Virus record (IMG/VR): IMGVR_UViG_2713896780_000009 | Strand: one strand, 5' to 3' | From: a virus | Taxonomy: Duplodnaviria; Heunggongvirae; Uroviricota; Caudoviricetes | Length of the DNA stretch: 5,230 bases | In this document: positions 1 through 5,230 of the stretch, piece after piece | How the letters are laid out: each line of letters begins with the position of its first letter | Position numbering within the stretch: position 1 is the first letter of the stretch | The notes under the pieces: model-generated | What the model saw: the letters and a program-made list of their open reading frames with translations, nothing else | Told to the model about the DNA's origin: nothing | The model's database searches: none | Position numbers and translations under genes: made by a program

Positions 1-341
1 GCGGTGATCTGCGCGTTCACGTCCGGCTGCGCCGCGCTGGCGTTTTCGCCCTCCGTCGCTGGCACCACGTCAGTAACGTCAGCCTGCGAAGCAGTGGCTG
101 AAACAGTTGTTGATTGAGTCTCTTTGGTCATTCGCCCTCCTGAGAGACGGGATTTACGTGCATCCAGTGCATCACGCATAACGGTGATCGCATCGGTGCT
201 GTTGACAAGTTCATCAGCCAGTCCGGCATCAATGGCCTCCTGACCGCTGTACACTGCAGCCTCGGTATCCAGCACAGCCTGCACGGACAGGCCGGTATAT
301 GCCGACACCTTCTGCGCAAACATCCGGCGGGTTGCATCCAT
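1..341 (-). CDS. nu3: Scaffolding protein Nu3, nested in-frame inside C by internal initiation; partial (3' end beyond window start).
   Basis: In-frame ATG at 341-339 on the minus strand gives MDATRRMFAQKVSA..., matching the start of lambda Nu3 as I recall it (lambda has Q at the fifth position, from memory). Same frame and downstream sequence as C. Confidence 0.6.
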   Translation of the reverse strand, partial: MDATRRMFAQKVSAYTGLSVQAVLDTEAAVYSGQEAIDAGLADELVNSTDAITVMRDALDARKSRLSGGRMTKETQSTTVSATASQADVTDVVPATEGENASAAQPDVNAQIT

Positions 342-951
342 CCGGGACTGCAGTGTTTCCCGGACATCACCCGGTAGATGGCTGTAGGGGTTGCCATCCA
401 CCTTATGGCTGCCGCTGTAAATCAGCGTGATTTCCACGCCCTGTTTCTCCAGCGCAGCACCGTAATTACTGTGAGCCATCATGACGCCGATGGAGCCTGT
501 CCGGGCGGTCTGCGTGACCAGACGCCGGGAGGCGGCGCTGGCAAGCAGCTGACCTGCACTGCAGTTCATGTCGTTGGCCAGCGCCCATACCGGNTTTATG
601 TCACGCACACGGGCGATGATGTCAGCACAGTCAAATGCTCCCGCCACCATTCCGCCCGGTGTGTCCATATCGAGCAGAATGCCGTCCACCATCGGGTCGC
701 TGGCAGCCTGTTGCAGACGGGCGATAATGCCGTTGTAACCGGTCATCCCCGAATACGGCTGCAGCGCCCGCGTCCGGCTGACCAGCGTACCGGACACCGN
801 NNNNNNNNNNNNNNNNNNNNNNNNNNNNNNNNNNNNNNNNNNNNNNNNNCTGATCCCAAGCTGGCCTGCAAGCGCACAAAAGAAAACCCGCGCATAGGCG
901 GGTTCAAGCATCAGCGGCTCATTAAAAGCCATGCTGGCAATATGCGGGAGA

Positions 952-971
<20 letters not shown>
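1..971 (-). CDS. C: Head maturation protease / scaffold protein gpC, 5' portion only (3' end lies beyond the window start). Interrupted by the N run 800-849 and ambiguous base 594.
   Basis: Minus-strand frame (codon top position = 2 mod 3) translates from 971 as VTAELRNLPHIASMAFNEPLMLEPAYARVFFCALAGQLGIS, then after the N run ...PVSGTLVSRTRALQPYSGMTGYNGIIARLQQAASDPMVDGILLDMDT..., and near the window start ...TQSTTVSATASQADVTDVVPATEGENASAAQPDVNAQIT, matching lambda gpC from memory. Start is GTG at 971-969, preceded by a strong Shine-Dalgarno GAGGAGGAG; the first in-frame ATG is at 932. Overlaps the B stop by 20 nt. Not in the ORF track because it runs off the window edge. Confidence 0.85.
800..849. 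other. Run of 50 N (unknown sequence) inside gene C; reading frame is preserved across it.
   Basis: Direct observation of the N run. The C frame is = 2 mod 3 on both sides. Flanking residues are GIS before and PVSG after; by my recollection of lambda about 44 residues (about 134 nt) separate these, so the true gap is probably longer than 50 nt. Confidence 0.9.
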
Positions 972-4632
<3,661 letters not shown>

Positions 4633-4658
<26 letters not shown>

Positions 4659-5178
4659 TCAGCAACCCCGGTATCAGTTCATCCAGCGCGGCTGCTTTGT
4701 TCATGGCTTTGATGATATCCCGTTTCAGGAAATCAACATGTCGGTTTTCCAGTTCCGGAAAACGCCGCTGCACCGACAGGGGGATCCCGTCGAGAATACT
4801 GGCAATTTCACCTGCGATCCGCGACAGCACGAAAGTACAGAATGCGGTTTCCACCACTTCAGCGGAGTCTCTGGCATTTTTCAGCTCCTGTGCGTCGGCC
4901 TGCGCACGCGTAAGTCGATGGCGTTCGTACTCAATAGTCCCTGGCTGGAGATCTGTCTCGCTGGCCTGCCGCAGTTCTTCAACTTCCCGGCGCAGCTTTT
5001 CGTTCTCAATTTCAGCATCCCTTTCGGCATACCATTTTATGACGGCGGCAGAATCATAAAGCACCTCATTACCCTTGCCACCGCCTCGCAGAACGGGCAT
5101 TCCCTGTTCCTGCCAGTTCTGAATGGTACGGATACTCGCACCGAAAATGTCAGCCAGCTGCTTTTTGTTGACTTCCAT
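4633..5178 (-). CDS. nu1: Terminase small subunit gpNu1 (181 aa), complete.
   Basis: ORF track 4633..5178 (-), MEVNKKQLADIFGASIRTIQNWQEQGMPVLRGGGKGNEVLYDSAAVIKWYAERD...LLSEYIEQSG, matching lambda gpNu1. N-terminal helix-turn-helix region is about residues 5-24 (5107-5166); GGGKG P-loop-like motif at residues 32-36. ATG at 5178 with GGA about 8 nt upstream. Confidence 0.95.
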
Positions 5179-5202
5179 TGTTCATTCCACGGACAAAAAC
5201 AG

Positions 5203-5218
5203 AGAAAGGAAACGACAG
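5203..5218 (-). promoter_or_regulatory. cosB R1-like element (gpNu1 binding site) just upstream of nu1; cosN itself lies beyond the window end.
   Basis: Plus strand agaaaggaaacgacag is, on the minus strand, CTGTCGTTTCCTTTCT, which I recall as the R1 element of lambda cosB about 25 nt upstream of the nu1 start. The minus strand of the last 70 nt (gctttttggcctctgtcgtttcctttctctgtttttgtccgtggaatgaacaATGgaagtc) matches lambda around bp 139-200 from memory. Exact site boundaries are uncertain. Confidence 0.45.
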
Positions 5219-5230
5219 AGGCCAAAAAGC

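Follow-up and report, generated by a model that had tools for sequence, protein, structure and literature searches.

The closest described system to the element considered here is cosB of phage lambda, where the sites stand in the order R3-I1-R2-R1 (NC_001416, approximately 50-170). The account of its mechanism used here is that of Feiss et al. (2015; PMC4669245). R1 is a binding site for the small terminase subunit (TerS, gpNu1), one of three such sites of 16 bp. R2 stands in inverted orientation, and a site for IHF, I1, separates it from R3. The bend that IHF makes at I1 lets a gpNu1 dimer, which has a winged helix-turn-helix, dock on both R3 and R2. The docked gpNu1 then anchors gpA, the large subunit, for the staggered nicks at cosN. 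Terminase is retained at the cosB end after nicking; it then engages the portal and drives translocation of the DNA. Termination of packaging requires cosQ. In this scheme, R1 has an accessory role, and is not essential (PMC4669245).

The same source describes two phages with related sites. Phage 21 has a cosB with the same R3-I1-R2-R1 architecture as lambda; here, other R sequences go with another recognition helix in TerS, and packaging specificity differs as a result. Phage N15 has lambda-like cohesive ends together with a “simple” cosB, which consists of a single R3 and an rR2 that lies inside the TerS gene. Lambda-like cohesive ends vary in their right half (PMC4669245).

The window, meaning the whole stretch of 5,230 nucleotides that was analyzed, carries C', B, W, A, and nu1 in that order, all on the minus strand. 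Read as its reverse complement, it is the head-gene block of a lambdoid left arm. Its features are:

1-971, minus strand: 5' part of C (S49 peptidase/scaffold), running off the window start; an open translation, named from the annotation of its homologue in the closest relative
952-2553, minus strand: B, lambda-family portal protein (Pfam Phage_portal_2, E = 4.9e-97)
2550-2756, minus strand: W, head-tail adaptor (Pfam gpW, E = 2.9e-37)
2753-4658, minus strand: A, terminase large subunit (Pfam GpA_ATPase and GpA_nuclease), with the N-terminal 175 codons open
4633-5178, minus strand: nu1, terminase small subunit, 181 aa (Pfam Phage_Nu1, E = 3.9e-101, full-length match)
5179-5230, minus strand: the nu1-proximal end of cos (cosB), 52 of 52 nt identical to lambda NC_001416 139-190 (reverse complement)
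5179-5202, minus strand: nu1 leader, from R1 to the ATG, identical to lambda 167-190
5203-5218, minus strand: R1, a gpNu1-binding element by homology to lambda, CTGTCGTTTCCTTTCT, 16 of 16 nt identical to lambda 151-166
5219-5230, no strand assigned: the R1-side half of the R1-R2 spacer, 12 nt, made of a palindrome arm extension and the start of the palindrome centre

The terminal 52 nt are the subject of this analysis. With a probability of roughly 95%, as judged from their sequence, they are the edge, on the nu1 side, of a complex cos of the lambda type in an E. coli lambdoid phage or prophage. This marks the window as a whole as the left end of a morphogenesis module like that of lambda. This segment is already known, and its biology is ordinary; nothing in it is new.

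The five genes have open reading frames, and neighbors overlap or abut throughout, leaving 5179-5230 as the only non-coding DNA in the window, as the first-pass annotation had said. A minus-strand open reading frame at 5037-5225 (TTG start, 62 aa) overlaps nu1 out of frame, is without support, and was treated as due to chance.

The reading of gene A requires some care. The window contains two runs of 50 N, at 800-849 and 4082-4131, and a single N at 594. These are artefacts of gaps or masking, not mutations. The run in gene C (800-849) stands where relatives have 134 nt, and the reading frame is preserved. The run in gene A (4082-4131) stands where relatives have 70 nt, and this yields an apparent frameshift; the list of open reading frames accordingly splits the gene in two, 4074-4658 and 2753-4204. 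A true frameshift or pseudogene was considered for gene A and was rejected, because 50 N replace the 70 nt of the relatives at the split point. For the annotator, then, the frameshift is a run of N, and gene A is no pseudogene.

On the plus strand, 5179-5230 reads gttcattccacggacaaaaacagagaaaggaaacgacagaggccaaaaagc, and the nu1 start codon appears as cat at 5176-5178. These 52 nt are also 100% identical to positions 9283-9334 of locus L001, a prophage of Shiga toxin-producing E. coli (STEC) that is the nearest relative of the window. The element that had been called R1-like proves to be exact. The R1 16-mer finds a single match in the whole window even when up to three mismatches are allowed, where 0.03 matches per window are expected by chance; 5 of 200 shuffled windows had a match at that threshold. 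Among 13 aligned references (lambda and 12 loci), R1 is unchanged in 12, the exception being L007, where the first base is substituted. Its distance from the ATG of nu1 is 24 nt, which places a 16-bp R element immediately upstream of a small-terminase gene, as in lambda. The intervening leader presumably holds the ribosome-binding region. A scan of the 52 nt for promoters and terminators gave nothing above the shuffled background. A weak terminator-like stem of 5 bp was seen at L001 9336-9323, one found against 0.5 expected from shuffles.

The protein that would read these sites is encoded next to them. The Nu1 of the window is identical to lambda gpNu1 at 179 of 181 residues (99%), and residues 1-74, which take in the DNA-binding domain at the N-terminus, are unchanged. 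Thus, the cognate TerS, with the N-terminal winged helix-turn-helix of the lambda type, adjoins cosB and is followed by TerL (gpA). An exact lambda R1, combined with a Nu1 N-terminus identical to that of lambda, argues for lambda packaging specificity in this phage rather than that of phage 21 or N15. If the site is intact, the DNA past 5230 would supply R2 (inverted), I1, R3, cosN with its 12-nt cohesive end, and cosQ, and the gpNu1 encoded beside cosB would be the reader of R1, R2, and R3. Identity with lambda at the sequence level suggests, in turn, that gpNu1 would bind R1 and that terminase would nick cosN.

The differences from lambda are of two kinds. The coding DNA has diverged by approximately 2%. 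In addition, the window itself holds only R1 and half a spacer of the lambda cosB. The core of packaging recognition (R2-I1-R3-cosN-cosQ) would fall just outside. The import of the segment is small beyond annotation. Taken alone, the window has the dispensable R1 as its only element, and is no proof of a functional cos or of an inducible phage.

R1 and R2 form a perfect inverted pair of 16 bp, and their symmetry extends imperfectly to arms of 26 nt. In L001, the arms lie at 9307-9332 and 9338-9363, are 85% complementary, and are separated by 5 nt. The R1-side arm corresponds to 5203-5228 of the window, with 5219-5228 being the extension past R1; positions 5229-5230 open the 5-nt centre. No part of the partner arm is inside the window, which ends at the dyad of the palindrome. 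The last ten bases (gccaaaaagc, 5221-5230) had been assigned to the inverted-repeat partner of R1. The inverted-repeat analysis of L001 does not bear this out. These bases are the extension of the arm on the R1 side plus loop, and R2 itself would start 14 nt past 5230.

This symmetry is also seen at the level of RNA. A late transcript over R2, the spacer, and R1 (L001 9307-9363, equivalent to window 5203-5259) is predicted to fold into a hairpin of -33.7 kcal/mol, with z = -4.0 against shuffled sequences. The hairpin is followed by CUCUGUUUUUG, and between its end and the start codon of nu1 there are approximately 24 nt. One might suppose that such a hairpin, on a late transcript that reads through cos into nu1, attenuates or stabilizes the terminase mRNA in addition to the role of these sites as DNA. 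This is unlikely; the hairpin is probably a mere reflection of two protein-binding sites that happen to be inverted. A search of cos against Rfam assigned it to no family. The models that it touched were hairpins of the miRNA type, the best at 25.5 bits where the gathering scores are 72-98, and these were rejected as chance matches on the palindrome.

What lies past position 5230 was read in homologous loci, not in the molecule from which the window came, with offsets counted from 5230. The sample consists of 127 loci that contain the last 60 nt of the window, of which 110, counted as independent, extend at least 140 nt further. In L001, whose element map supplies the offsets, the following are found:

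+14 to +29: R2, inverted relative to R1
+47 to +59 (79-91 in lambda): a match to the IHF consensus (I1), with one mismatch to WATCARNNNNTTR
+70 to +85: R3, in the same orientation as R1
+126 to +137: the cohesive-end 12-mer, AGGTCGCCGCCC on the plus strand, equivalent to GGGCGGCGACCT
+161 to +167: cosQ (GGGTCCT)

The offsets of R2 and R3 also apply to relatives that contain the last 60 nt of the window. Position 5230 is equivalent to lambda 139, which puts the 12-nt cohesive end (lambda 1-12) at +127 to +138. The difference of one nucleotide between lambda and L001 arises because the R2-R1 spacer is 26 nt long in the first and 25 nt in the second. Homology therefore supports the first-pass annotation in its central claim, that the end of the window cuts through cosB, with cosN about 140 nt further on. 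It follows, too, that the end of the window, not being at cosN, is not the end of a virion DNA.

A cohesive-end site is present in all 110 of the extended loci. In 106, it is the 12-mer of lambda without any change, and it starts 125-127 nt past 5230. The other four (L017, L035, L053, L081) have a variant, GGGCGGAAGGCG, approximately 121-133 nt past the equivalent of the window end. It differs from GGGCGGCGACCT by five changes, all at positions 7-12, which fits the published variability of the right half of cohesive ends (PMC4669245). Flanking DNA that lacked any cos-like site, such as host DNA or an att site directly beside nu1, had been named as the outcome that would count against the annotation. 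None of the 110 extended loci has host DNA or an att site there. By this comparison with relatives, R2, R3, and cosN are probably present in the molecule of the window as well. In the remaining 17 loci, the sequence runs on for 0-138 nt past the equivalent of the window end, and in 13 of them it stops short of the cohesive end. Four loci stop exactly at +137/138, and are read as ends at the cos cut.

When lambda and 12 loci are aligned over cos, all keep cosQ, cosN, R3, the AT-rich region of I1, R2, and R1, and the relatives thus share with lambda both the sequence and the order of these elements. They differ from lambda by a few substitutions in the spacer and beside R3. Most of the aligned prophage relatives have the shorter spacer of 25 nt, and the extra G of lambda (GCGAGGC) is absent from all 12 (L001, L002, and L005-L014, from prophages or metagenomes). 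Three of the loci, L009, L011, and L013, have in common the loss of one A inside R2 (AGAAAGG-AACGACAG). The same three carry, upstream of cosQ, DNA with no relation to the lambda-type sequence of the other loci, and similarity resumes at the cosQ motif (GGGTCCT), approximately 30 nt upstream of the cohesive-end 12-mer. This break at the left edge of cos is a boundary of mosaic recombination.

Beyond cos, the lysis genes Rz, R, and S had been expected, for an integrated prophage, adjacent to the window end and on the minus strand. Their order and strand are as expected, the strand being that of nu1. Their adjacency is not; the nearest lies approximately 1.2-2.6 kb away. In L001, Rz begins 1421 nt past the window end, followed by the lysozyme at 2877 nt and the holin at 3810 nt; the intervening DNA holds a PerC-family gene, an antirepressor, and, on the opposite strand, a YlcI/YnfO gene. 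The distance to the first lysis gene in phage PhiR42_1 is 2612 nt, counted from the equivalent of the window end. In lambda, Rz ends approximately 2.2 kb before that point, with bor and two further open reading frames intervening. The exact Nu1 protein allows a further comparison. In all ten of the places listed for it, a block of holin, lysozyme, and Rz/Rz1 lies on the strand of nu1, approximately 1.3-2.3 kb upstream of the nu1 start, which is approximately 1.2-2.2 kb past the equivalent of the window end. Genes for bor, DUF1398, or DUF3950 intervene in these places, mostly on the opposite strand. Across relatives, then, the space between cos and the lysis block holds accessory genes (bor, DUF1398, DUF3950/YlcI-YnfO, PerC), several of them on the opposite strand.

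The closest match to the window, L001, comes from bovine E. coli strain 88_1577 (NZ_CP074804). It differs at eight bases and one N over 5130 aligned nt, and is 100% identical over 4132-5230 of the window. Prophages of STEC (O145, O111) and Stx1a-converting phages (LC645428-LC645437) are 99.7-99.8% identical over the whole window. Lambda is 97-98% identical, with 107 mismatches over 5130 nt. In all, 88 phage records match the whole window at a coverage of at least 80%.

No source identical over the full length was found in any of four collections. In complete E. coli genomes (megablast), the best match is that with eight differences. A scan of genome contigs for an exact 61-mer gave 20 loci, in which all window-length matches were 97-98% identical; a scan of viral contigs for an exact 121-mer from gene B gave eight loci, the best at approximately 99%; and a scan of metagenome contigs for an exact 129-mer of the window end gave 91 stretches, none of them a full-length identical match. 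The window contains neither an att site nor host DNA. In L001 and L002, and in the ten listed places with the exact Nu1, cos is internal and lies downstream of the lysis genes. The window alone fits integrated prophage and free phage DNA alike. The head module is, further, mosaic and widely shared, and therefore says nothing about whether its source carried stx.

How widely it is shared can be seen with a probe of 342 nt from L001 (104 nt of nu1 and 238 nt of cos). Of 5426 complete E. coli genomes, 4479 gave a match. Coverage reached at least 80% of the probe in 3985 genomes, the median number of places per genome being two. The exact Nu1 protein occurs in 46,895 indexed blocks of an assembly collection. 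The lambda-type cos/nu1 segment is well known, and is found in most E. coli genomes.

The places matched by the probe include the K-12 cryptic-prophage loci annotated as nohD and nohA. DLP12 and Qin, the K-12 prophages that hold these loci, are remnants that are not known to have an intact head module. Their segments of cos and nu1 start are approximately 98% identical to that of the closest relative of the window, and near-identical segments sit in cryptic prophages of other strains. This suggests a different view of the window, as part of a decayed prophage of the DLP12/Qin kind, or as DNA cut off by a rearrangement or a contig end at the R1/R2 palindrome, with no usable cos or packaging function beyond 5230. 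That the window ends on the palindrome dyad would fit such a break, as would the frequency with which assemblies break near cos, seen in the 17 loci that end early, 13 of them before the cohesive end. The gene content speaks otherwise. Unlike the K-12 remnants, the window has nu1, W, and B complete, while A and C are present, with open frames in all their readable parts; the interruption that A seems to have is due to a run of N. In addition, a cohesive-end site is present in each of the 110 extended loci. A remnant or a break is thus very unlikely, and the edge of a lambda-type cos is preferred.

A segment shared with lambda could, of course, come from lambda itself, as control DNA or as a cosmid or fosmid vector in an unrelated assembly. 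Sequences that look like such contamination are present in other assemblies. The same 61-mer appears in assemblies from Kitasatospora, Bradyrhizobium, Chromatium, Pseudomonas, Shewanella, and others; four such loci compared directly with lambda (L015, L021, L033, L034) are 99.7-100% identical to it; and lambda cos fragments of 262-403 nt occur in assemblies from Raphidiopsis, Aeromicrobium, and Archangium. The window, in contrast, is 97-98% identical to lambda and 99.8% identical to STEC prophages, and its 5 kb of head genes would be unexpected in the cos fragment of a vector. Contamination is on these grounds effectively refuted, with only a very slight chance left to it. A still smaller chance attaches to a cos from one of the phage-inducible chromosomal islands (PICI/EcCI), which exploit the terminase of a helper. 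Islands of this kind carry lambda-like cos sites, according to two reports (PMC9026076, PMC6739421). Here, R1 directly adjoins a set of morphogenesis genes that belongs to the phage itself (nu1, A, W, B, and C, in the order of lambda), by which an island is refuted.

These assemblies deserve a note of their own for the annotator, since the exact cos/nu1 junction recurs in unrelated bacteria as lambda or vector contamination. The exact cos/nu1 61-mer was found in unrelated species-representative assemblies at L015, L016, L018, L020-L022, L026, L028, and L030-L034, with Paenibacillus, Oceanobacillus, and Leeuwenhoekiella also among the genera. The contigs concerned measure 48,442 and 48,392 nt in Pseudomonas and 48,542 nt in Shewanella. 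From their sequence, these are read as contamination by lambda control DNA. Isolated cos fragments of lambda (48300-199 or 48452-211) lie inside otherwise unrelated sequence at L025 2226-2626, L027 2213-2614, and L029 5246-5505, in assemblies of Raphidiopsis brookii D9, Aeromicrobium sp., and Archangium violaceum. These short fragments look like cosmid or fosmid vector sequence.
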